DNA of 64,000 bases. It comes from Dictyostelium discoideum. Taxonomy: Eukaryota. Positions 3,263-50,328 of this stretch are shown in pieces. Below the pieces are notes generated by a model. The model did not search any database and was not told where the DNA came from. It worked only from the letters and a program-made list of their open reading frames with translations. Location: contig CM000153.2 of the NCBI GenBank assembly GCA_000004695.1, forward strand, positions 288,001 through 352,000. Reading direction: 5' to 3'. The position numbers and the translations under genes were made by a program. Each line of letters starts with the position of its first letter. The first letter of the stretch is position 1.

Positions 3263-8249
<4,987 letters not shown>

Positions 8250-18163: not shown

Positions 18164-18562
18164 TTAAACAAGATCCATAACATGACCAACTATAATTTTC
18201 TTTATTACTTTAAATACAAATTCAATATTTTCAGTATCTACAGCTATTGTGAAATGAGTATAAATTTTCTTATTTGGATCAATTTTAACAGATTCAAATT
18301 TTCTTTGAATGTGAAGTGAAACTGCTTCAAAACTATTTTCACCAGTATATTTTTTATCATAAGTTTTGAATGGTACTCTTTTTAATTTTTCAATAAACAT
18401 ATCTTTTTTATTCAAAAAGAGAATAATTGAACTTGAATCAAACCATTTACTATTACAAATTTCTTTAAATAAACTTAATGATTCATCCATTTTATTTACA
18501 TTTATATCTTCTCTTAATGCTTGATCATATCTATATAAAAACTAATATTAGTTTTTTTTTTT

Positions 18563-27895: not shown

Positions 27896-27944
27896 ATAAA
27901 TAAAAACAAATAAAGACACAAAAACATTATTTTGATATCTAAAC

Positions 27945-27947
<3 letters not shown>

Positions 27948-28018
<71 letters not shown>

Positions 28019-28021
28019 TTT
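27948..28021. repeat. (TTA)n microsatellite
   Basis: Perfect tta repeats. Inverse-complementary to the (AAT)n blocks at 30602, 35689 and 41067. Confidence 0.9.
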
Positions 28022-28205
28022 AAGTTCAGCCAGAGTTGATAACCACAATTCTTGATAGGACGGAAGAGATCAAAGAATGTAATGTTGTACCATGTTTACC
28101 CGCGAAAACTTGATTACTACTTTTTCAATTTAATTGAAGATCTTTCATGCATGTTTACGTGATACCAATACTCTTGCAATCCATTTGAAAGATAAGATTT
28201 AATAA

Positions 28206-28345
28206 TGTTGGTTGAATTGATTCAACTATTACTATTACTATTACTATTACTATTACTATTGTTATTGTTATTGTTATTGTTATTGTTATTGTTATTGTTA
28301 TTGTTATTGTTATTGTTATTGTTATTGTTATTGTTATTGTTATTA
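28206..28345. repeat. (CTATTA)n then (GTTATT)n hexamer satellite
   Basis: Seen directly. The reverse complement resembles the (GATAGT/AATAGT)n block at 30100-30265. Confidence 0.85.
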
Positions 28346-28559
28346 CTATTTCTACCAATACTATATTCACTACCTAAACTATTACTCTCTCTACTATTTT
28401 ATCTACCAATATTATCTCCATCAATTGAATTTAAATTTTATAACTTGTTGAATTTGTTGATGCTGTTGTTGTTTGTTTGTGTGCTTTTGGATGAGAATTT
28501 ACACAACATATTTGCAATGAGTTTTAAACGTTTCAAACAAATACTTAAAACGGTGCTTT

Positions 28560-28850
28560 TGAATTGATTAAACAATAGCCTTGAGAAGGGTGATGCATCA
28601 CTTGTAATTATACCATAATGACCAGAAGGTGGTTGAGTGGTGCAAAAAGGACGAGTGTACCCAGAACGAATAACAGAATCAATGGCAGCACAAACCAAAC
28701 CACTTACTCTCGATGAGGCTTTAATAGAACGAATTGGACATGCATATGTAGAGTTTTAACTTGGATTGTATATCTCCACATGTCCAATCATTGGAAGTCT
28801 CAGTAGAGCTGATCACAATGCTCACTCTTCGATATCTTGTATTTTTGGCA
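28560..28850 (+). repeat. Dispersed repeat module Q, copy 1 (~290 bp, unknown class)
   Basis: ~85-90% identical to 41505..41790 (caatagccttgagaagg...ccagaacgaata...gcagcacaaac.aaaccacttactctcgatg.ggctttaat.gaacgaattggacatgcatatgt). Both strands carry short ORFs in both copies. Bounded by unrelated sequence. Confidence 0.7.
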
Positions 28851-29164
28851 AGACTCTTGTTAAATTAAATGGAGAGGTATAATATACTTATACCATCCTT
28901 ATTAGTATTGATTGATGTATTTTTTAAACTAGTGGCCACTGAGATATTGACAAGAGCTCGATAGCCGACACTCATTCCATTCTATATGTACAATGGTAAT
29001 TATCGAACCATCACGTGAATAACAACAAGAGTTCCACCATCTTCTAAACTGGTTATGTTTTGTTTACAACTATCTTTAATTTGTGATTTATTAAACATTT
29101 GGTTGGTTTGGAAGGATATGAGTATTGGCAGAAATTAAATTTTTCTCTTTTTCATTTACTAAAT

Positions 29165-29460
29165 CTGAATTATTCAATTGCCAAACCAAATTTACATTTT
29201 CTACAACTTTGAGTATGATCACCGTCCAATGTTGAAGCCATCAATTTAATTGGTAGTGTAATAGGTAACAAATCCAAAGTATGAGTACGATTCTTCTTGT
29301 CCAATTGATCCAAACCATCAATGACCAAAAGTACTTGAGTGATTTCATCACCAATAAACATTCTTATTACTATTATTATTATTACAACGATAATCATCAC
29401 CAATAAACATTCTATTGGTTCAATAGAGTTTACATCTTTGATTCCATATAAACACCTGTA
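29165..29460 (-). repeat. Repeat module R, copy 1 (minus orientation, 3' part), carrying a decayed ORF with a NACHT/NB-ARC-like Walker-B-type motif
   Basis: The reverse complement matches 30880-31060 and 35930-36100. It encodes ...DEITQVLLVIDGLDQLDKKNRTHTLDLLPITLPIKLMASTLDGDHTQSCRKCKFGLAIE. An 18-nt direct duplication, atcaccaataaacattct, is seen at 29346 and 29396. Confidence 0.6.
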
Positions 29461-29629
29461 GATGGTTTCGTGATAAACTAACTAGTTGTTTTAAAAATGT
29501 ACCATCAAAATGAAAAAAAAAAAATGAAAAAAAAAAATAAAAAAAAAAAAAATGAAAAAATAGAAAAAAAAAAAGAAAAGAAAAAAAAAATTTAATTTTT
29601 ACAATTTTCCAAAGATAATTATTTGGCCT

Positions 29630-29729
29630 GTCCCATGCCAAAATTAATATGGCTGCTGAAATTAATATGATAATTTTGGCATGGGACTTATGTCTGCTAG
29701 AATTACCATATTAATTTCAGCAGCCATAT
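29630..29729. repeat. Interleaved inverted-repeat (A-B-A'-B') hairpin element
   Basis: A gtcccatgccaaaatta (29630-46). B atatggctgctgaaattaatatg (29647-69). A' taattttggcatgggac (29671-87), the exact reverse complement of A. B' catattaatttcagcagccatat (29707-29), the exact reverse complement of B. It sits between oppositely oriented copies of modules and satellites. Confidence 0.85.
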
Positions 29730-30099
29730 TAATTTAAGCTTACAAACCACAATTAGTCATCCTTTCCGCTGTTTTTGATGCTCATAAAGATTATCCAACC
29801 AGTGTTGAAATTAAATGAAAAGGATTATTTCGTCATCAAAATCATTAAAACAGCTTTCAAATATTGTAACTTCTTTTTTTTAAAATTTTTTTTATTTTTT
29901 TTAATTGTAAAGGGTTATGGATCGAAAAAACAAATTCATTGCAAATCTGTTGTGTAAATTCATCTTAAAGCACACAAATAAACAATAACAGCAACAACAA
30001 CAAATTCAACAAGTTTATAAAATTTTAATTCAATTGGTGGAAATAATAGGGATAGTATTAACTTAGGTGGAAGATAGTATTGATAGAAATAGAAATAGT

Positions 30100-30265
30100 A
30101 ATAGTGATAGTGATAGTAAAGTGATAGTGATAGTGATAGTGATAGTGATAGTGATAGTGATAGTGATAGTGATAGTGATAGTAATAGTAATAGTAATAGT
30201 AATAGTAATAGTAATAGTAATAGTAATAGTAATAGTAATAGTAACAGTAATAGTAATAGTAATAG
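30100..30265. repeat. (GATAGT)n then (AATAGT)n hexamer satellite
   Basis: Seen directly. Approximately the reverse complement of the 28206-28345 satellite. The flanking motif cgcgggtaaacatgg (30476-90) is the reverse complement of ccatgtttacccgcg at 28082-96. Confidence 0.85.
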
Positions 30266-30600
30266 TACAAACTTCTTGCAATAGGATGGAGGTAGTGCAT
30301 TATTTTTACAAAGAATCTCATCAAGTTCATCTTCTGGAATATCGTCAAAGTGTTCCAACAAATGATTTCTAAAAGCACGTGAAAACACTTTTCTACTACT
30401 ATAAAGATCTGGTGGATTTGAGTTGCGAATAACATAAAGTGTGGGTAGTCTTAAGACTTCTTAGATCTCTGGAATGAATAGTTCGCGGGTAAACATGGTG
30501 TAACATCCCATGATTCTTTCGAAACATCCTATGAAGAATTTCAGATATTACAGATAATCAACTTAAAGAAATGATGAAGAAAAAAAATTAACAAAAAAAG

Positions 30601-31176
<576 letters not shown>

Positions 31177-31418
31177 AACCAAAAATTTAGCGCCAACTTT
31201 AGCAAAACTCTTTGAAGGTATTTTAGATGGTTGGAAGGTATACGATTGTGGCTTTGTTATTCAAGTCTGTAGTTTAAACAATTTACCAATCAATATGCAT
31301 TCGAAAAAAAAAATATATAAATAAAAGATGCAACAATATAATGTTTTTTAGTGTCTTTGTTTATTTATTGTTTTAATTATTGAAAGTTAATTTGATTATT
31401 TTATTAATTTATTTTTAT

Positions 31419-34601: not shown

Positions 34602-35280
34602 TCTTTATTATATAATTTTTATTAATAAAATAAAAATTAAATGATTAGAAAAAAAAAAAAAAAAAAAAAATTGTTTTGAAAGGATTATTGAGAATTATTG
34701 GAAAAAAAAAAAATAATAAAAAATAAAATTAATAAAATTAATAAAAAAATCTTAGTAAACTAAGACTGGGGAAGTAAAAATAAAAAAAATAATTAAAATA
34801 AAAAAAAAAAAAAAACTTTTCGGCAATGAAAAAAAATTTCGCAGTTTCCTAGGATTTCAAAAAAAAAATCTTTTTAATGTTTCGTTTTTATAATCCCAAA
34901 AATAGATTTTTTCTTAAAATTACCAGTGCTGAGAACATATTTTTTTTTTTTTAATAATTAAATAAAATAAAATAAAATAAATTAGAATACTCAGTTTTCT
35001 ATATATTCCAATTTGAAATCAAATCAAATCATATCAAATGAAACCAATTTAAATTAATTTAAATCAAATAAAAATAGTGTCATACGTCAAAAAAATAAAA
35101 AAAAAAAAAAAAAATAAAAAAATAAATGCAAGATATCTTTTTTATTTATTTGTTTTTTTTTTTCATAATTAATTTTTGAAAGTTAAATTTTTAAAAATTG
35201 TTTTTTTTTTTATTTTTTTTTTTTTTATTTTTTTTTTTTTATAATTTTCACTTGGGATTTATATTTTTTTTTTTTATTTT

Positions 35281-39990: not shown

Positions 39991-40056
39991 TTTTTATTAT
40001 GTGCTATTTAATAAAATAAAAATATATTGAAAAAAAAAAAAAAAAAACTATTTATA

Positions 40057-40098
<42 letters not shown>

Positions 40099-40697
40099 AA
40101 ATTATCTAATTCTTATTGGAGAAAAAAAAAATTGGGCAGTCTTGAATGAAAATATCTTGAACATTTTTTTTCCTGAATTTTAAAGTTTAACCGAAAAGTT
40201 TTTTTTTCTTTTTATTTTTTTAATATATTTTTTTATTTTTTTTGTTCAATTTTCTTTAAAAGATTAAATTAAAGAAATCAAAGATGATTTTTTTTTTAAA
40301 AAAAACCTAATCACAAGAAAAAGATTGTAATTAGAATTAAAGTAATTAACTTCTTGAAAGCCATTTTTTTTTCTTTTTTTTTTTCTTTTTTTTTTTTTTC
40401 AAATAAGGAGAGCCTCTCAGAAAATAAAGAAAAAAAAAAAAAGGCGACAAACCCACCTTTGTCACACAAAATTAATTTTCAACAATTTTATTCCAAAATT
40501 AAACTCAAAAAAAAAAAAAAAAAATTTTTCAATTTGGTTATATTAAGGGTGGTTGGATGTAAAAATTTCAGAATTAAAGTGGTGAAAAGTAATTTTGTGC
40601 GGCACTGCGGGTTTGTCTCCTTTTTTTTTTTTTACTTTTATTTTTTTATTTTCTATAGGACTTCCCTTTCAATTTTCCGAAGTTTGAATTGAAAAAA

Positions 40698-40740
<43 letters not shown>

Positions 40741-40748
<8 letters not shown>

Positions 40749-41064
40749 TTCTAACACAAAAAATGCACACAGAAACAGTTATATAAAACATGTTTTCAAA
40801 TATTTATAGACTATATCAAAAAATAAGCATTGCATGTTTTACGAAAAAAAAGAGTATCCCATAAAGATTAAATCATTAATTTAATTCAATTGGTAATTAT
40901 TAAATAATTAGTTTATTTTCTATTATTAATTAATTATATATTCTAATGGTGATAAATTAATTAGTTAGCTTAAAATATAGATGGACAAGTTGCTAATAAA
41001 GGTCAATCTTCAGGTGTTTGTATGGAATCAAAGAGGTAAGCTCTATTGAATCAATAGAATTTTA

Positions 41065-41066
<2 letters not shown>
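40741..41066 (+). repeat. Repeat module L, copy 2
   Basis: See module L copy 1. Followed by (AAT)n at 41067-41160. Confidence 0.7.

Positions 41067-41160
<94 letters not shown>
41067..41160. repeat. (AAT)n microsatellite
   Basis: Perfect aat repeats. Confidence 0.9.
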
Positions 41161-41163
<3 letters not shown>

Positions 41164-41504
41164 TTAATTAAATAAATAAACAAAAAGAATAAATAAATAA
41201 AAACAATAAATAAAAAAAAAGATAATAAAATAAAACTACAATCTTAATTGAAAAAAAAAAAAAAAAAAAAAAAAAATAAATAAATAAAATAAAACTAGTT
41301 TTAATAAATCTAAAACTTTGTAAATATGTTTTGAAAAAAAAAAAAATATTTTATTTTATTGTTTAACTAAATTTGGTTTAAAATTCAAATAAAGAACTAT
41401 CTACTCTAAAAGAGAAACCCTTTTCAAATGAACTCTTTGAATGATTTTATTCAACCATTGTTAACCAGCGGTCAATGAAGCATATTTAGCGCCAAAGGAA
41501 ACGT

Positions 41505-41790
41505 TATTGGTATTAAACAATAGCCTTGAGAAGGTGAAGCATCACTTGTAGTTCTACCATAATGAGCAGCATGATGAGCAGCAGGTGGACGAGTGACGCA
41601 AAAAGAACGAGTATACCCAGAACGAATAAAAGAATCAATGACAGCACAAACTAAACCACTTACTCTCGATGCAGCTTTAATGGAACGAATTGGACATGCA
41701 TATGTTGTGTTTTAATTTCGATTGTACAGTATCAGTAGAGTTGATCACAACGCTCAATATTCAGTGGGAGAATGCTACACTTTTTTAAAC
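41505..41790 (+). repeat. Dispersed repeat module Q, copy 2
   Basis: See Q copy 1 (28560..28850). Confidence 0.7.
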
Positions 41791-41910
41791 AAGTGATTGA
41801 ACTAAGAATGGTTGAAATTAATTGTTTACAACTTCACCTTCTAAACAATCTAAAATACCTTCAAATTGAAAGATATGGGATATTGAGTATTCTAATTTTA
41901 TTATTTTTTT

Positions 41911-42651
41911 TTAAAATAATATATTTATTAATAAAAATGCTATTAAGAAAATATTTAAAATTAATTTTGACGATTTTGATGAATTTGGTTCATTTGATTC
42001 CTTTGGTTCATTTGAAGAATTTGGTTCATTTGATGAATTTGGTTCATTTGATTCATTTGGTTCTGGATTTGGTATTGAATTGAAGCAGGATAAATATTGA
42101 TCATTTTTAGTTTTTGAATATAAAGCATCTTTACAATCAATGGAACCATAGGATTCAGTACTTCCAATTCCAGTACAATCTTTTGATGGGTAGGTTGTAA
42201 TAGTGTAATTTTGAAAAGGATCATAATTGATTTTAATATTTGTACCACATACTGATGAACATTTACCTATTGTAACTATTTTATCATCGACACAAGGACC
42301 TTTTACAAATTTGAAAGAATAATATTTTGAAATTAATGTTGAACAAGTTATTTCCCCATCTATTACTTGATTATTATATCCATCATAGCAATTAAAATTA
42401 ACAATAAATGGATAATTTGTGTTTTCATAGTAACCTTGATTTTTGCAATCATAATCTGTAAAGAATGAAATTTGAAAATATGAATTGTACATTTTTGATA
42501 TCTTTGCATTTTTATTACAAAATATGCCACATTCATCCAAGTTTAATACACCATTTTCACAATTCTTTGCTTGTATTTTAAATACATCATATTGTGATGA
42601 CACAATTAAAAAAATATTAAATAAAAATAAGATTAAAAAAATAAATTTCAT
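41911..42651 (-). CDS. Small Cys-rich secreted protein with GPI-type C-terminus, copy S2; intact, single exon, 246 aa
   Basis: Signal peptide MKFIFLILFLFNIFLIVSS and 12+ Cys (NCEN...ECGIFC...DYDC...NFNC...ITC...GPCVDD...GKCSSVCG...KDCTGIG...IDC...LSC). C-terminal (NEPNSS)n-like repeats followed by SSKSSKLILNIFLIAFLLINILF-stop. Paralogues at 25069, 47121 and 50450. Confidence 0.7.
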   Translation of the reverse strand: MKFIFLILFLFNIFLIVSSQYDVFKIQAKNCENGVLNLDECGIFCNKNAKISKMYNSYFQISFFTDYDCKNQGYYENTNYPFIVNFNCYDGYNNQVIDGEITCSTLISKYYSFKFVKGPCVDDKIVTIGKCSSVCGTNIKINYDPFQNYTITTYPSKDCTGIGSTESYGSIDCKDALYSKTKNDQYLSCFNSIPNPEPNESNEPNSSNEPNSSNEPKESNEPNSSKSSKLILNIFLIAFLLINILF

Positions 42652-43059
42652 GTTTGTTGGAAAAAAAGAAAAATGACAAGAAAAAAAAAAAAAAAAAAAA
42701 AATATTATTTGTTATTTTTTAAAAAAAAAAAAAATTTATTTTTGGGACCTGTAAATTTAAGAAAAATATCCTTTTTTCCAATCTAAAAAACCGTTTTTTT
42801 CTTGGGTTTGCAAAAAAAAGTTTCGGCAAACAATAATTTTGAAAACCCAAGAAAAAAACGGTTTTTTTTTTGTTTGCCAAAACTTTTTTTTTTTTTTTAT
42901 ATATTTTTAATCGAATTTTAGTTTTTTAATTAATTTTTTTTATTTTTTTTTTTTTTATAAATTAATTCTCACCAATCCTTTCAAAACAAATTTTTTTTTT
43001 TTTTTTTTTATTTATTAATTTTAATTTTTATTTCATTAATAAAAAGTATATAATAAACA
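42652..43059. promoter_or_regulatory. Divergent (bidirectional) intergenic region between S2 (-) and TIG copy 4 (+), containing a 25-bp-arm palindrome
   Basis: The two ATGs point outward, 408 bp apart. Arm aaaaaaccgtttttttcttgggttt (42785-42809) and its reverse complement aaacccaagaaaaaaacggtttttt (42843-42867) are interleaved with a second short inverted pair, ggcaaacaa (42825-33) and ttgtttgcc (42870-78). Confidence 0.45.
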
Positions 43060-46000
43060 ATGAATTATTCAAATTTAATAATATCAATAAATTTTTTGTT
43101 ATTATTTTTTATTACAACATTAAATAGTGAATCAATCTTTAAATCAATTTATCAAACTGGAAGTAATTTTGAAATTAAATTGACTCAACCATTATATTTA
43201 TTTAATATTACAAGTTTAGATAATTTATATTATGATTATGATTTTAATGGTACATCAGTTTTAAATTCATGTATTTTTAATTCAAATTATTTTTCTTTGA
43301 ATTTATCAAAATTAAAAAATGTTGATCATAGTTTTCCAGATCGTGACTCTATGACAAATATTGAGCACCTTTTTTCAATTTGTTCCGAACTGTCTTCCTA
43401 TAGCAGTCAATCTGGTTTTATTAAAAGTGAAAGAAAGGAATTTGTTGCAACTGGAGATTTAAATAAAGAAAGTTTTAAATTTGGTAGACTTGGTGTTGAT
43501 AATTATGCATTGAAATTAACATATTCCAGTAATAATTTGTTTTATTGTGAAAGATATGGTGGTACCACTAGAAATTATTATTTTCAATGTGATGAAAATC
43601 AAGAATTTAACTTTACTGCACCATCTGTAAATTTTTATGATTGTAATGTAGATGTTTATATTAAAACAAAATATGTATGTCCATATAAAAATACCAAAAA
43701 AACACCAATTAAATATTCATTAGTTCAACCAAATATTTTACGTTTTACAATGGATGAAAATTCTTCAATTTTAATTTCAGTAAATAATGGTAATGCAATT
43801 GAATCTTTACCACCAATCAGTATGTATAATTTATTTTTTTAAAAAAATTAATATTATTTCCTACCACTACTTTTATCTTAAACTATAAAATTCTAAATGT
43901 TCATTTTAATTTTTTTATAGAGCCAATAATCTATAGTTGTGAAAACAATGGTGGTGATATTATTACAGTAAATGGTTTATTTTTTGAAAATTTTTTATCA
44001 AATTATACATTAAATTTCGAACCGTTTCTGATAGACATATTTGATCCATCAGTAATAATATCATTCAATTCAACAACATTGGTAGTAAACTCTACAGGTT
44101 ATGTTGATAATTACTTAATTATTTCTTTCTTTTATTATCAATCTGAAAGATTTCCAATTTTAAAACCACAACAGCAAATGGAATTAAGTTCATGGTATGA
44201 TGATGATTTTGATATGCTGTACAGAATGTACAAATTGTATTGGTGCAAAAACAATAGGATTGCCATATACTTATACAATACCTTCATACTACCCATTCTC
44301 ATTTTACACTGAAAAAATCATTTTAAGTGGAATTTATTTAGAAGCCCCAATCTATCCATATAAAAGATCAAATGCATTACCGTTACCAACTAATTTTCAA
44401 AAAGTTAATATCAGTGGTAATGAAATATTCGAATTTAATGGTAATTCAATAGTATCAATAAGTGGCCGTTTTATTCCAAAAATATACGATAATCAAGCAT
44501 ATATTATAGGAAAATTAGAATTTTTAAATGGTACAATATGTATATTGGATTATAATACTTTGAATAATAGTGTATTAACACAAGGTAAATTCAATATTCC
44601 AAGTGGTTATGGTAATGGTAATTTTTCAATTTATATTAAAGATAAATTGGTTCATTCAAATGCATTTACTTATCAACCACCATCAAAGTGGATTTCATCA
44701 ATCACTCAAAATCAAGAAAAGGTACAATTACATCTTTCATTTCCATTTTCTTTATTACAAATAACAAGTATTAAATATAATGATAAAAATGGAAAAGATT
44801 TAGACTATACTTTAATTGAACCTAATATCATTTCATTGACATTAAATACATATTCTACAAATGTACTTTCATTTAATAATGATTATCATATCGAAACTTT
44901 AACAAATGGGTTAAACTGTAAGTAAATACTATCATACAAATTATTTAATTTTACATATAACACTAACAAAAAACATTTTATATTATTTAGTTCGTCCAAT
45001 TATTTATAGCTATTTTAGTAATTCAATTGAAAATGGTACGAATATAATAATGGAGGGTCTCTTTGTATCAAAATTGTCAAATTATAAATTTTATTTAGAT
45101 GATAGTAAAATTGCTGTTTCTGGTGACCAAGTAACCTATTAAACAATTCTCATATGTATATGTTTATAGTGACGATTATTCATATACAAGGGTACCAGAT
45201 CTCACAATTACAAGCGAGCAAGACCAACTATTGTTTACATGTAGTAATTGTTTAGGTGGATATATCAATATAAATGAACCAGAAAGTAATCAAGATTCTC
45301 AATTCTCTCAAATTGGTACAATTGTAAAACAATTTAATACAAATACAATTTTAAATAAATACAATGCTTTTACATTTACCAAAGACTCAAAAACAATATT
45401 TATACAACCACCATTACCTTCAAATGTAAAAATTGATGGAGGTTTAGCTCAATTTTCAACTTTCAGTAATAATAATATTTTAGTTAGTGGTGATTTTTTA
45501 TTGGATATATTCAATCGTTTTGATTATACAAATTTCCAACTTCAATTTGATAATGGTACAATTTATTCACCAAATAAACAGATTTTATCAAAATCAGATC
45601 AAAACTATGTTTATCAATTAAATATACCATTTGCATATGGATCTGGTAATTTTAGTGTATTTTCTACTCTAGAAAATGGTAGAAAGTTTATTATAAATTC
45701 AACTCCATTCAATTATCCAAAAACACCAATAATTAATTCAATATCAAAAATTAAAGATGGAAATCTTAAAATAATTGGAGATGGTTTCTTTGATGTAGTT
45801 GTTTTTGGTTCTTTTAAAACAACATTTAAAAATATAACAACTGGTCTTTTTTCAGATACAATCGAATGTCATTCTCAAATAACTCAACATCAAAACATTA
45901 TTTGCCAATTTACAATGAATCAAAACTTTAGTTTAGTATATTCTCAAGATACTCCGATTACAATACAAATTAAAAGCTCCAAATACTCACAGCACCAATT

Positions 46001-46220
46001 TGAACCAGTTTATACCCAAACTTTTTTCAATAATTCAAATCCAAATTCTAATTCAAATTCTAATTCAAATTCAAATTCAAATTCAAATTCAAATTCAAAT
46101 TCAAATTCAAATTCAAATTCAAATTCAATTTTAATTTCAAATTCAAATTCAAATTCAAATTTAGTTTTCTCCAAATTTGTAGCAACTATTTTTATTTTAA
46201 TATCAATATTGTTTCAATAA
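43060..46220 (+). pseudogene. TIG-like glycoprotein family copy 4: full-length but disrupted (frameshift in exon 3, stop/deletion at start of exon 4). Lacks intron 1.
   Basis: ORF 43060..43842 fuses the exon-1 and exon-2 homologues with no intron (..VDHSFPDRDSMTNIEHLFSICSELSS..). The exon-3 homologue switches frame between ORFs 44079..44312 and 44197..44925. The exon-4 homologue begins with a stop (..GDQVTY-stop) and is deleted relative to DQVTYFDSSRLSLIMNQ. The C-terminal (AATTCA)n expansion encodes (NS)n. Confidence 0.7.
46040..46165. repeat. (AATTCA)n hexamer repeat inside the coding C-terminus of TIG copy 4
   Basis: Encodes NSNSNS... immediately before the hydrophobic tail. A shorter version is present in copy 2 (NNSNSNSNSNTDPEM). 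Confidence 0.85.
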
Positions 46221-46643
46221 ATAAAAATAAATTAATAAAATTATCAAATAAAATATTATTTTGTATCATCTTTTATAATCGTCTTTTTAATGTTCATAAA
46301 AGGAATTCTGGAAACAAACTAAAATTTGAACAGTTTTTTTTTTTTTTTAAAATATTCTATTATTTTGGGGACTCGGTTATTTCTCCTCACTCACCTCGTT
46401 TAGGATTATAAAAAATAAATAAATTTACTCTTTACAAAACCAAATGAAATTCAAAATAAAAAAAATATGTATTTATTTTATTTTAATAAAAAATTTTTAT
46501 TATTATTCTCATATGATTTTATTGTTTAAGTTCTTTCTGAACATGCTATTTTTTTTTGTAAAGTTTTTTTTATTATTTTCCATTTCTTTTCTTTTCTTTT
46601 TCTTTTCTTTTTCTTTTTTTTTTTTCTTTTTCTTTTCTTTTCT

Positions 46644-47120: not shown

Positions 47121-47665
47121 TTAAAATAATATATTTTTAGTTTTTGAATATAAAGCATCTTTACAATCAATGGAACCATAGGATTCAGTACTTGCAATTC
47201 CAGTACAATCTTTTGATGGGTAGGTTGTAATAGTGTAATTTTGAAAAGGATCATAATTGATTTTAATATTTGTACCACATACTGATGAACATTTACCTAT
47301 TGTAACTATTTTATCATCGACACAAGGACCTTTTACAAATTTGAAAGAATAATATTTTGAAATTAATGTTGAACAAGTTATTTCCCCATCTATTACTTGA
47401 TTATTATATCCATCATAGCAATTAAAATTAACAATAAATGGATAATTTGTGTTTTCATAGTAACCTTGATTTTGGCAACTATAATCTGTAAAGAATGAAA
47501 TTTTAAAAAGTTCATCGTACACCTTTAAAATCTTTGCATTTTAATACAAAATATGCCACATTCATTCAAGTTTAATACACCATTTTCACAATTCTTTGCT
47601 TGTAATTCAAATACATCATATTGTGATGATACAACTAAAAAAATATTAAATAAAAATAAGATTAA
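47121..47665 (-). pseudogene. Small Cys-rich GPI-type protein family, copy S3: near-identical duplicate of the S2 core, with 5' indels and a truncated/replaced 3' end
   Basis: 47150-47470 is almost identical to 42100-42420. The region homologous to the S2 start (47523-47660) has indels that break the frame. The ORF ends ...KTKNILF-stop, with no GPI tail. Confidence 0.7.
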
Positions 47666-48089
47666 AAAAATAAATTTCATATTTGTTGGTAAAAACATTA
47701 ACGTATTAAAAAATAAAAAAAAAAAAAATATTATATATTATTTTTAAAAAAATATATTCTCGGCACTGGTAAATTTAAGAAAAAATCTCTTTTTGGAATT
47801 ATAAAAACGAAACACGTTAAAAAGTTTTTTTTTTTTGAAATACCAAGAAAAATAAAAAGTTTTTTTTTTTTTTTTATTTTAATTATTTTTTTATTATTTG
47901 TTTTTCCAATTTTTCTAGAACCTTGGTTTACAAAGATTTTTTATTATTTTTTTTAATTTTTTTAATTTTTTTTTTTTTTTTTTTTTTGCAGATTCCCGAT
48001 CATCTATGATAATCCTTTCCAAAAAATTGTTTTTTTATTTTTTTTTTTTTTTTTAAATTTTAATAAATTTTATTTTAAAAATCAATTTG

Positions 48090-50328
48090 TTCCAAACTGC
48101 CTTCCTATAGCAGTCAATCTGTTATTATATATAAAAAGTCATTTTTTACAACTGGAGATTTAAATAAAGAAAAATTTGAATTTGGTAGATTTGGTGTTGA
48201 TAATTATGCAAGTCCTGGTTGTTCAACTAGAAATTATTATTTTCAATGTGATGAAAATCAAGAATTAACTTTACTGCACCATCCAACGTAAATTATTTTG
48301 ATTGTAATGTAGATGTTTATATTAAAACAAAACATGTATGTCCATATAAAAATACCAAAAAAACACCAATTAAATATTCATTAATTCAACCAAATGTTTT
48401 AGTTTTACATTGGATGAAAATTCTTCAAATTTAATTTCAGTAAATAATGGTAATGTAATTGAATCTTTACTTCAATATACCAAGTGGACATGGTAAAGGT
48501 ACTTTTTCAATTTATATTAAAGATAAATTGGTTCATTCGAATTCATTAAATTATCAACCCCATCAAAGTGGATATTATCAATCACTCAAAATCAAGAAAA
48601 GGTACAATTACATCTTTCATTTCCATTTTCTTTATTACAAATAACAAGTATTAAATATAATGATAAAAATGGAAAAGATTTAGACTATACTTTAATTGAA
48701 CCAAATATCATTTCATTCACATTAAATACATATTCTACAAATGTACTTTCATTTAATAATGATTATCATATTGAAGCTTTAACAAATGGATTAAACTGTA
48801 AGTATTTGTAAACATTCAAAAAATATAATTTTATTCATACAAAATATTTAATTTTATATTTAACACTAACAAAACATTTTATATTATTTAGTTCGCCCAA
48901 TTATTTATAGATATTCAATTGAAAATGGTGCTAAAATAACAATGGAGGGTCTCTTTGTATCAAATTTGTCAAATTATAAATGGAAAAGATTTAGACTATA
49001 CTTTAATTGAAACAAATATTATTTCATTCACATTAAATACATATTCTACAAATGTTCTTTCATTTAATGATGATTATCATATTGAAACATTAACAAATTC
49101 ATTAAACTGTATGTATATTTTAAAGATTAAAAACTAATCAAAATTTTTTAAATTCATAACTCACCAAAAAACATTTTATATTATTTAGATCGTCCAATTA
49201 TTTATAGTTATTCAATTCAAAATGGTATTATAACAATGGAGGGTCTCTTTGTATCAAAATTATCAAATTATAAATTTTATCTAGATTTTAGTAAAATTGC
49301 TGTTCCCAGCGATCAAGTAACCTATTTCGATAGTTCAAGAATCAGTTTAATTATGAATCAGGTTTCACATGTATATGTTTATAGTGATGAGAATTTATTT
49401 ACCATGGTACCAGATATCACGATTACAAGCCAGCAAGACCAATTATTGTTTACATGTAGTAATTGTTTAGGTGGATATATCAATATAAATGATCCAGAAA
49501 GTAATCAAGAATCTCAATTCTCTCAAATCGGTACAATTGTAAAACAATTTAATACAAATACAATTTTTAATAAATACAATGCTTTTACATTTACAAAAGA
49601 TTCAAAAACTATAGTTATACAACCGCCACTACCTTCAAATGTAAAAGTTGATGGAAGTTTAACTTAATTTTCAACATTCAGCAATAATACTATTTTATTT
49701 AGTGGTGATTTCTTATTGCATAAATACAATGGTTTAAATTATACTGATTTCCAATTTCAATATGATAATGGTACAATTTATTCGGCAAAAAAACAAATTT
49801 TATCAAAATCTGATCAAAACTATAAATATCAAATAAATGCACCATTTGCATATGGATCTGGTAATTTTAGTGTATTTGTTACTTTTGAAAATGGTAGAAA
49901 GGTTATAACAAATTCAATTCCATTCAATTATCCCAAAAAACCAATAATTAATTCAATATCAAAAATTATGGATCAATCGACATTATACAATAAGTGGCGA
50001 TGGTTTCTTTGATGTTATAGTAATTCCTTCTTTTAAATCAAACATTTATTCAGAAACAATCGAATGTCATCCTGAAATAATAAATCAAAATATTATTTAC
50101 CAGTTTGAAATGAAACAAGAATCCTCGGTAGATTCTCAATATCCAATTGAAATAAAAATTGAAAGCCTTGAATACTCACCTTTCCAATTTGAACCATTAT
50201 ATACCCAAACCTTTTTTTATGACCCAAATTCTGATTCAGAAATTTTAAAGAGTGATATTAGTTTACATTCAGTTTTCTCCAAATTATTTGCATCTCTTTT
50301 TGTTCTAATATCAAAATTGTTTCAATAA
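48090..50328 (+). pseudogene. TIG-like glycoprotein family copy 5: heavily decayed (exon-2 fragment, partial duplicated exon-3 3' ends, frameshifted exon 4)
   Basis: Fragments match the exon-2 (..TRNYYFQCDENQE..KYVCPYKNTKKTPIKYSL..), exon-3 3' end (duplicated at 48600-48790 and 48975-49110) and exon-4 homologues. The exon-4 region splits into ORFs 49236..49667, 49716..50012 and 50110..50328 with stops between them. Confidence 0.7.

Follow-up and report, generated by a model that had tools for sequence, protein, structure and literature searches.

Template switching is a known mechanism of mutation in bacteria, in yeast promoters and in primates, and the classical quasi-palindrome model of Ripley needs short pre-existing complementary seeds. 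The correction of quasi-palindromes (Ripley, 1982) was later generalised into a four-point model, in which template-switch mutations create inverted repeats and hairpins (Loytynoja & Goldman 2017, PMC5453318); that study excluded events whose copied (2->3) fragment was shorter than 14 nt. A second well-described case is that of yeast promoters, where the arms of inverted repeats have expanded from 7 to 25, from 9 to 24 and from 12 to 48 bp, and where 107 loci with such expansions are situated upstream of genes and overlap known regulatory elements (Rozenfeld et al. 2026, PMC13100816). Expression changed in one of the two yeast cases tested, being raised for GRE2 and barely affected for ERT1 (PMC13100816). 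Our literature search on this process in amoebozoans found no paper. Here we describe interleaved inverted repeats in a divergent promoter of Dictyostelium discoideum that we interpret, with a probability of roughly 0.78, as young, lineage-specific products of replication template switching, i.e., of quasi-palindrome or inverted-repeat expansion.

The stretch of DNA analysed, hereafter the window, comprises 64 kb with ca. 22 % G+C overall (ca. 14–34 % per 2-kb segment) and contains several paralogous copies of two genes, designated S and T. The S-type ORFs of the window match hypothetical proteins of D. discoideum AX4 (listed for S2 in Table 1); the identifiers of the neighbouring genes are unmentioned in the papers searched, and a tRNA scan of the window found none. 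The palindrome had been placed inside a bidirectional promoter shared by S2 and T4, and this location is correct: both ORFs are divergent, with starts at 42651 (−) and 43060 (+), respectively, and the palindrome occupies a central position in the 408-bp intergenic region, 134 nt from the ATG of S2 and 193 nt from that of T4. The initial annotation designated T4 as a copy of a TIG gene. A Pfam search with every ORF piece returned no TIG (PF01833) or other match at E ≤ 10, the database homologues carry no precomputed Pfam domain, and a profile search against PDB sequences was empty. Motifs such as PIINSISKIKDGNLKIIGDGFF seem to resemble the start of a TIG domain. The AlphaFold model is all-beta with a C-terminal helix, but its mean pLDDT is only 37.

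Table 1. Genes, repeat arms and conserved blocks of the S2/T4 intergenic region (positions in the window)
Feature	Position	Strand	Description
S2	41911..42651	-	246-aa ORF; small Cys-rich protein with hydrophobic N and C termini; homologues DDB_G0283235, DDB_G0283101 and DDB_G0283241
T4 (TIG copy 4 of the initial annotation)	43060..46220	+	Multi-exon; ca. 950-aa all-beta protein with a C-terminal hydrophobic helix
Upstream conserved block	42751..42766	+	GTAAATTTAAGAAAAA; exact in the S3/T5 promoter (47769), one mismatch in the T2 promoter (34908-34923, minus strand)
X, left arm of repeat 1	42785..42815		AAAAAACCGTTTTTTTCTTGGGTTTGCAAAA; derived, lineage-specific reverse-complement copy of X' (31 nt, 97 %); absent from the L007, L006, T2 and T5 promoters
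Y, left arm of repeat 2	42812..42836		AAAAAAAAGTTTCGGCAAACAATAA; derived reverse-complement copy of Y' (25 nt, 92 %)
X', right arm of repeat 1	42837..42867	+	TTTTGAAAACCCAAGAAAAAAACGGTTTTTT; ancestral box TTTGAAAnnCnArGAAA
Y', right arm of repeat 2	42867..42891	+	TTTTTGTTTGCCAAAACTTTTTTTT; ancestral box TTTGCCGAAA and T-run; the window copy has a derived G>A (GCCAAAAC)
Proximal conserved box	42974..42989	+	AATCCTTTCAAAACAA; ca. 70-85 nt upstream of the T4 ATG and followed by a long T-run; identical in window T4, window T2, L003, L006 and L007

Two inverted pairs had been described here, and both were recovered with the same coordinates and sequences, although the repeats to which they belong are larger than first described. 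The first consists of exactly complementary 25-nt arms (42785–42809 and 42843–42867) separated by 33 nt, and extends to 31-nt arms, X and X', that match at 30 of 31 positions and leave 21 nt between them. The second, GGCAAACAA (42825–42833) and TTGTTTGCC (42870–42878), is also exact; this 9-nt pair is weak when taken alone, at least two matches being found in 7 out of 100 shuffles, and it forms the core of a 25-nt inverted repeat, Y and Y', with 23 matches (92 %). The four arms are interleaved in the order X, Y, X', Y' (topology A-B-A'-B') and tile 107 nt (42785–42891) with zero unique spacer.

Only three perfect inverted repeats with arms of at least 12 nt, at least four G/C in the arm and a spacer of at most 60 nt were found in the whole window, namely the palindrome at 42.8 kb and two at 29.6 kb. 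The longest comparable repeat in 30 third-order Markov simulations was of 14 nt, and the expected count of a 22-mer arm in shuffled sequences was 0.00. As single-stranded DNA, the X:X' hairpin has a folding energy of −31.1 kcal/mol (z = −7.4, with none of 200 shuffles as good), and the alternative Y:Y' hairpin one of −19.7 kcal/mol (z = −3.3). Chance does not account for the palindrome. Nor is it an assembly artefact, because a chromosome-scale assembly of D. discoideum (GCA_054883475.1, designated L005) is identical at 901 of 901 bases across the palindrome region. L005 was assembled independently and belongs to the strain lineage of the window: the overall identity with positions 40432–61107 is 99.83 %, the differences being eight changes in homopolymer length and one substitution.

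An H-type pseudoknot built from the four arms was rejected for steric reasons: its stems, of 31 and 25 bp, would lack connecting loops, which makes the X:X' and Y:Y' pairings mutually exclusive. Folding yields two alternative hairpins. The A-B-A'-B' topology is best taken as a trace of how the sequence originated, not as a functional pseudoknot.

To compare this promoter with its relatives, loci from other isolates were located through homologues of the T gene in other Dictyostelium assemblies. The isolates compared are labelled D. discoideum and are ca. 8–12 % divergent from the window, housekeeping genes included. Four homologous promoters were used: that of the orthologue in assembly GCA_054859385.1 (L007), that of a co-orthologue (L006), and those of the two closest paralogues from the window itself, T2 (34.8 kb) and S3/T5 (47.8 kb). 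MAFFT mis-placed the window-specific insertion in these promoters; its position was resolved by aligning them globally with a low penalty for gap extension. In L007, the orthologous S2/T4 cassette aligns contiguously with positions 41860–43361, a segment that covers the S gene, the intergenic region and the start of the T gene (88 % over ca. 1500 nt), and the remainder of its T gene aligns with 43362–46239 at 90.6 % identity, T4 being its best match in the window. The element region of L007 reads CTAAAAAGATTTTTTTTGAATTCTCAAGAAAAAAATCGTTTTTTTCTATTTGCCGAAACTTTT (in a longer stretch, CGAATCTAAAAAGATTTTTTTTGAATTCTCAAGAAAAAAATCGTTTTTTTCTATTTGCCGAAACTTTTTTTT), that is, one X' followed by one Y', with no counterpart of X and Y. 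Likewise, L006, T2 (reverse complement of ca. 34800–34940) and S3/T5 (47750–47870) each contain a single X' box, oriented relative to the T gene as in L007, and the box is single-copy and equally oriented in the five related promoters. At the position of X and Y, the latter three promoters contain ATAAAAACGAAACA(CG)TTAAAAAG, i.e., CGAAACA(CG)TTAAAAAG. The ca. 45–50 nt at 42792–42836 have no counterpart in L007, L006, T2 or T5, and no inverted repeat comparable to that of the window occurs in any of the four homologous promoters. The first ca. 9 nt of X (AAAAAACCG) may be an ancestral anchor. Single-stranded folding of the L007 and T2 promoters, the only two folded, was no better than that of shuffled sequences (z = −0.4 and +2.0, respectively), and in the more distant cassettes S1, S4/T6 and T3 the X' box itself is absent.

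To the left of the element, the window and L007 share the derived state AATCTAAAAA, the other promoters having ATTATAAAAACG. This supports the tree ((window, L007), (T2, T5, L006)), on which a gain of the left arms in the window lineage is far more parsimonious than repeated losses. A compact element with terminal inverted symmetry and present in one lineage only would also be the expected product of the insertion of a foldback or MITE-type mobile element, or of an artefact of assembly. However, there are zero further copies of the arms in the 64-kb window and in seven related loci of ca. 20 kb each, no target-site duplication is visible at the flanks, the novelty is limited to the left half, which derives from adjacent sequence, and two independent assemblies agree base for base. 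We consider either origin extremely improbable.

The comparison also bears on the proposal, made in the initial annotation, that the palindrome is a shared cis-regulatory hairpin or palindrome. Such an element, conserved among the S/T cassettes, would co-regulate both genes through a dimeric factor or as a DNA or RNA hairpin; its central position in the divergent intergenic region, the conservation of the right-arm boxes in five related promoters and the distance of 42 bp (ca. four helical turns) between the cores of X and X' fit this idea. Nevertheless, the orthologue and all the other cassette promoters examined lack the left arms, and the homologues that were folded, L007 and T2, gave no fold signal. 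The palindrome is not conserved across the other cassette promoters, an outcome that the annotation itself had regarded as contrary to its proposal. Additionally, arms of 31 and 25 bp situated 21–30 bp apart do not resemble the operators of dimeric transcription factors, and the X:X' and Y:Y' pairings exclude each other. Long T-runs usually precede transcription starts in Dictyostelium, and the position of the element upstream of such runs makes an RNA hairpin unlikely. A regulatory palindrome common to the cassettes is thus, in our view, very unlikely. What did stand of the expectation of conserved blocks are the X' and Y' boxes, shared by the close homologues with one copy per box.

We consider that these single-copy boxes, X' (TTTGAAAnnCnAAGAAA) and Y' (TTTGCCGAAA), are reasonable candidates for transcription factor binding sites. 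A partial match to this region that had been noticed at 47769 corresponds to the 16-mer GTAAATTTAAGAAAAA, which is exact at 42751 and 47769; this block lies outside the palindrome and reflects paralogy. The region of the proximal box AATCCTTTCAAAACAA is probably the core promoter of T4. Judging from conservation, X', Y', the upstream block and the proximal box are sensible candidates for cis-acting elements.

Several observations indicate the direction and the relative age of the copying. Read as its reverse complement, the window-specific stretch matches the right half of the palindrome (30/31 for X/X' and 23/25 for Y/Y'), and positions 42812–42830 are an exact 19-nt reverse complement, with five G/C, of Y' from L007 (TTTGCCGAAACTTTTTTTT); L006, T5 and T2 also gave reverse-complement matches, of 9–11 nt and with G/C. 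Controls modelled on those of Loytynoja & Goldman (PMC5453318), in which the sequence was only reversed or only complemented, yielded no match longer than 9 nt (homopolymer), and none longer than 7 nt if three or more G/C were required. The C at 42824 in Y (GTTTCGGC) retains the ancestral base, which is the G in TTTGCCGAAAC / GCCGAAAC of L007, T2 and L006, whereas the Y' of the window, now GCCAAAAC, has lost it; therefore, the copying of Y from Y' preceded the mutation of Y'. Moreover, the arms differ from each other at 3 of 56 positions, against ca. 12 % between the orthologues, which places the event after the split. Taken together, the comparisons show that the left half is derived and is the reverse complement of the ancestral right half. 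The locus shows, as expected of a template switch, a derived cluster that is the reverse complement of nearby sequence (19 nt when compared with L007) and a negative reverse-only control; a single switch and return (four points) does not cover the whole cluster, the X-Y order not being reversed with respect to X'-Y'.

We propose the following sequence of steps for the formation of the palindrome by template switching; that replication was the mechanism, and how many events there were, is inferred. The ancestral S/T promoter would have contained, upstream of the T gene, X' (TTTGAAAnnCnAAGAAAAA..CG), a T-run, Y' (TTTGCCGAAAC) and another T-run. In the lineage of the window strain, the nascent strand would have left its template ca. 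55 bp upstream, and its A-run would have annealed, by microhomology, to the T-run situated right of X', so that X' was copied backwards to produce X. The strand would then have re-annealed to the T-run right of Y', with Y' being copied backwards to produce Y, and would finally have returned to the original template. As a result, ca. 15–25 nt of ancestral sequence would have been replaced by a reverse-complement copy of ca. 45–50 nt, composed of two templated patches that could stem from either one serial-switch event or two events. In the homologues, the boxes are flanked by short complementary stretches of low complexity that might have seeded the switch, AAAAACG / CG(T)TTTTT in T2, T5 and L006, and AAAAAG.TT / AAACTTTTT in L007. 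The ancestral sequence proposed for the switch site is approximate, since L007 has a deletion at this point and the remaining homologues are co-orthologues or paralogues.

The order of the copies speaks for the two patches. A single contiguous copy of X'-Y' would give Y-X, and the order observed is X-Y; therefore, two templated patches are postulated. The copies would be ordered X then Y because each box was copied separately, while inversion of a single block would give B-A-A'-B'. A single inverted duplication of the whole block was discarded for this reason of order.

Among single events of the four-point type, '3-1-4-2' is the only one that gives the A-B-A'-B' topology, and it predicts gap-free tiling (PMC5453318). 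We rejected one such event as the origin of the palindrome: under it, X and Y', as the outer arms, would have to be ancestral, whereas the order and spacing X'-T-run-Y' are conserved in the four homologues. The insufficiency of a single four-point event is a point against the template-switch explanation, which must assume two events or multiple switches.

Under template switching, the palindrome would be a mutational footprint and not a selected hairpin, and its only plausible activity would be exerted at the DNA level, by providing a second, inverted copy of both candidate boxes on the S2 side. These extra inverted boxes could change the expression of S2, of T4, or of both; in addition, the duplication would create a hairpin-prone site for replication. 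It has to be considered whether selection kept the novelty, the extra inverted X'/Y' boxes strengthening or balancing the transcription of S2 and/or T4. What was duplicated corresponds exactly to the conserved boxes, which contain G/C in a promoter that is otherwise A/T-rich; S2 is intact (246 aa) and T4 has a gene call of 953 aa in L005, in contrast to the degenerate S3/T5 cassette next to them; and an inverted-repeat expansion raised the expression of GRE2 in yeast (PMC13100816). However, the expansion at ERT1 in the same yeast study caused little change (PMC13100816), and the arms have already accumulated three mismatches and so show no sign of purifying maintenance. We deem a selected gain of this kind unlikely.

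The novel stem could also, in principle, have been the source of a hairpin RNA, a de novo miRNA-like precursor that arose through template switching and is cut by the Dicer-like protein DrnB. The dimensions of the hairpin (31-bp stem and 21-nt loop) would allow it, template switching is documented as a source of new miRNA hairpins (bioRxiv 10.1101/2023.04.19.537475, the same work as PMC10710096), and there are weak, sub-threshold matches to miRNA-precursor models of Rfam. Nevertheless, no Rfam match reached its gathering score in positions 40000–44000, the best being 30.8 against a gathering value of 70 bits, and the arms are absent from one supplementary file of a miRNA survey of D. discoideum (PMC6161686). 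The arm sequences have no match in the searchable full-text literature. Additionally, the stem is mostly A/U homopolymer and lies upstream of both presumed transcription starts. There is, in our opinion, hardly any chance that the palindrome gives rise to such a precursor.

The element at 29.6 kb also contains interleaved inverted repeats, and the shared A-B-A'-B' topology that had been reported for both elements is correct in outline. Its homologue in another isolate (L003, positions 5170–5270) has the same pieces, with only a 23-nt repeat of 83 % identity, and the segment gtaattctagca is in opposite orientation in L003 and in the window. From this comparison, the 29.6 kb element of the window looks like an arm expansion plus an inversion of the spacer, which would belong to the same mutational class as the palindrome at 42.8 kb. 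A bolder combination would be that homopolymer runs seed serial switching, making interleaved repeats recurrent (two unrelated examples in 64 kb), and also that the event at 42.8 kb built a functional enhancer of new symmetry that rewired the co-expression of a rapidly evolving, paired secreted/membrane gene cassette; we find this conjunction doubtful, indeed quite improbable.

These results illustrate that a promoter palindrome may be statistically extreme without being a regulatory device, and that the comparison with one orthologue can turn it into a dated mutational event. The expansion of inverted repeats by template switching is a known kind of event, of which this locus would be a new and tidy amoebozoan example, with candidate cis-elements duplicated in a bidirectional promoter. 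Duplicated promoter boxes are raw material that, as the case of GRE2 in yeast showed, can alter expression. Among conserved elements, interest centres on the boxes X' and Y', present as single copies, and not on the hairpin. Were interleaving of this kind common in the intergenic DNA of Dictyostelium, it would bear on the emergence of promoter novelty in genomes rich in A/T homopolymers, as well as on the misalignment and mis-annotation of such clusters.

When compared with known systems, the palindrome resembles palindromic operators and the sites of dimeric transcription factors in having dyad symmetry in a promoter, but its arms, of 25–31 bp and 21–30 bp apart, are far larger, and the second half-site occurs in no homologous promoter. 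With the origin of RNA hairpins and de novo miRNAs by template switching (PMC8794818; PMC10710096), it would share the mutational route, by which a long perfect stem appears in one step; unlike de novo miRNAs, its hairpin is known from the DNA sequence, with only sub-threshold matches in Rfam and none in the supplementary file of the miRNA survey. With four-point and quasi-palindrome mutations it has in common a lineage-specific cluster that is the reverse complement of sequence situated tens of bases away and that forms a near-perfect hairpin. It differs from a single four-point event by needing two non-contiguous patches that keep the order of the template, and from the four-point cases by the microhomologies used for switching, which would be A/T homopolymer runs, typical of a genome with 22 % G+C. 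Unlike the yeast expansions, the palindrome is in a bidirectional promoter of an amoebozoan host, involves two interleaved expansions instead of one, and is known here from sequence alone. Nonetheless, it coincides with them (PMC13100816) in its location in an upstream regulatory region, in the inclusion of boxes inside the arms and in its strain-specific presence, and it is of the same scale, the yeast seeds of 7–12 bp having given rise to arms of 24–48 bp.

A second cluster of interleaved inverted repeats was found at 29630-29735, composed of the two perfect pairs listed in the table. When we considered G/C-containing inverted repeats (perfect arms of at least 12 nt, a spacer of up to 60 nt and at least four G/C per arm), the only perfect pairs in the window were those of this 29.6 kb cluster and the focal palindrome, the interleaved repeats of the S2/T4 divergent promoter that we read as a template-switch footprint. 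The homologue of the cluster in another isolate (L003, 5170-5270) contains just one 23-nt repeat, with 83% identity, and one spacer piece is in inverted orientation with respect to the window. This shorter repeat and the inverted spacer piece suggest, from sequence comparison, that the 29.6 kb cluster belongs to the same template-switch class as the focal palindrome. The interval that separates T1 from T2, two convergent copies, (27900-31400) is also rearranged with respect to other isolates: it contains inverted segmental repeats, and the relative orientations in which its segments 29200-29350 and 29733-30218 align to L006 and L007 are opposite.

Features and their positions (window coordinates unless a locus is named)
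Feature	Position	Strand	Remarks
29.6 kb cluster, perfect 17-nt arms	29630-46/29671-87
29.6 kb cluster, perfect 29-nt arms	29641-69/29707-35		extendable to 41 nt at 93%
Inverted segmental repeats, T1-T2 interval (example)	29200-29349 vs 31029-30880		91%
Small X' palindrome, L007	3460-3482	minus
Small X' palindrome, L006	~18175-18200
Proximal T-promoter box	42974-42989		AATCCTTTCAAAACAA
S3/T5 cassette	47133-47680 and 48082-48470
79-codon open stretch	41475-41711	minus
Second copy of this stretch	28567-28770		84% identity
T-run/A-run hairpin	40357-40463		upstream of T3 copy
Assembly gap	7036-7135		100 N; within long ORF region 3263-7657 (minus strand)

In homologues, the X' box (the ancestral promoter box of the focal palindrome) forms with its right flank a small palindrome of its own, AGAAAAAAA-TCG-TTTTTTTCT, whose right half was lost in the window and now reads TTTTTTTTTTG. 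Directly upstream of a long T-run, ca. 70-85 nt from the ATG, the proximal T-promoter box, a candidate core-promoter element, is identical in the promoters of five T genes (from the window T4, a large multi-exon gene, and T2, and those from L003, L006 and L007).

The S2 gene (for a small Cys-rich protein), the S3 gene and their proximal promoters are 92% identical (42092-42776 vs 47124-47794), S2 being closer to S3 than to its own orthologue in L007 (88%). This tract stops 9 nt short of the focal palindrome, and past its end the S3/T5 promoter is of the T2/L006-like type; the end of the tract looks like the boundary of a duplication or gene conversion. The S3/T5 cassette itself appears degenerate, with S3 broken across two reading frames and T5, whose alignment is piecemeal, lacking ca. 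100 initial codons.

A 79-codon open stretch with higher G/C than its surroundings matched the histone deacetylase domain PF00850 weakly (E = 1.4e-4), failing the cut-off; it is probably a pseudogene fragment that moved together with segmental duplications. The T-run/A-run hairpin is of low complexity, and its sub-threshold match to the Rfam family Phe_leader (38.9 vs 55 bits) is probably meaningless.

The assemblies carrying L001, L003, L006 and L007, all labelled D. discoideum, diverge from the window by 8-12%, housekeeping genes included (89.6% identity in the G-alpha region), and the order and copy number of the S/T cassettes also vary. Either these isolates are behaving as cryptic species or polymorphism in the region is unusually high.
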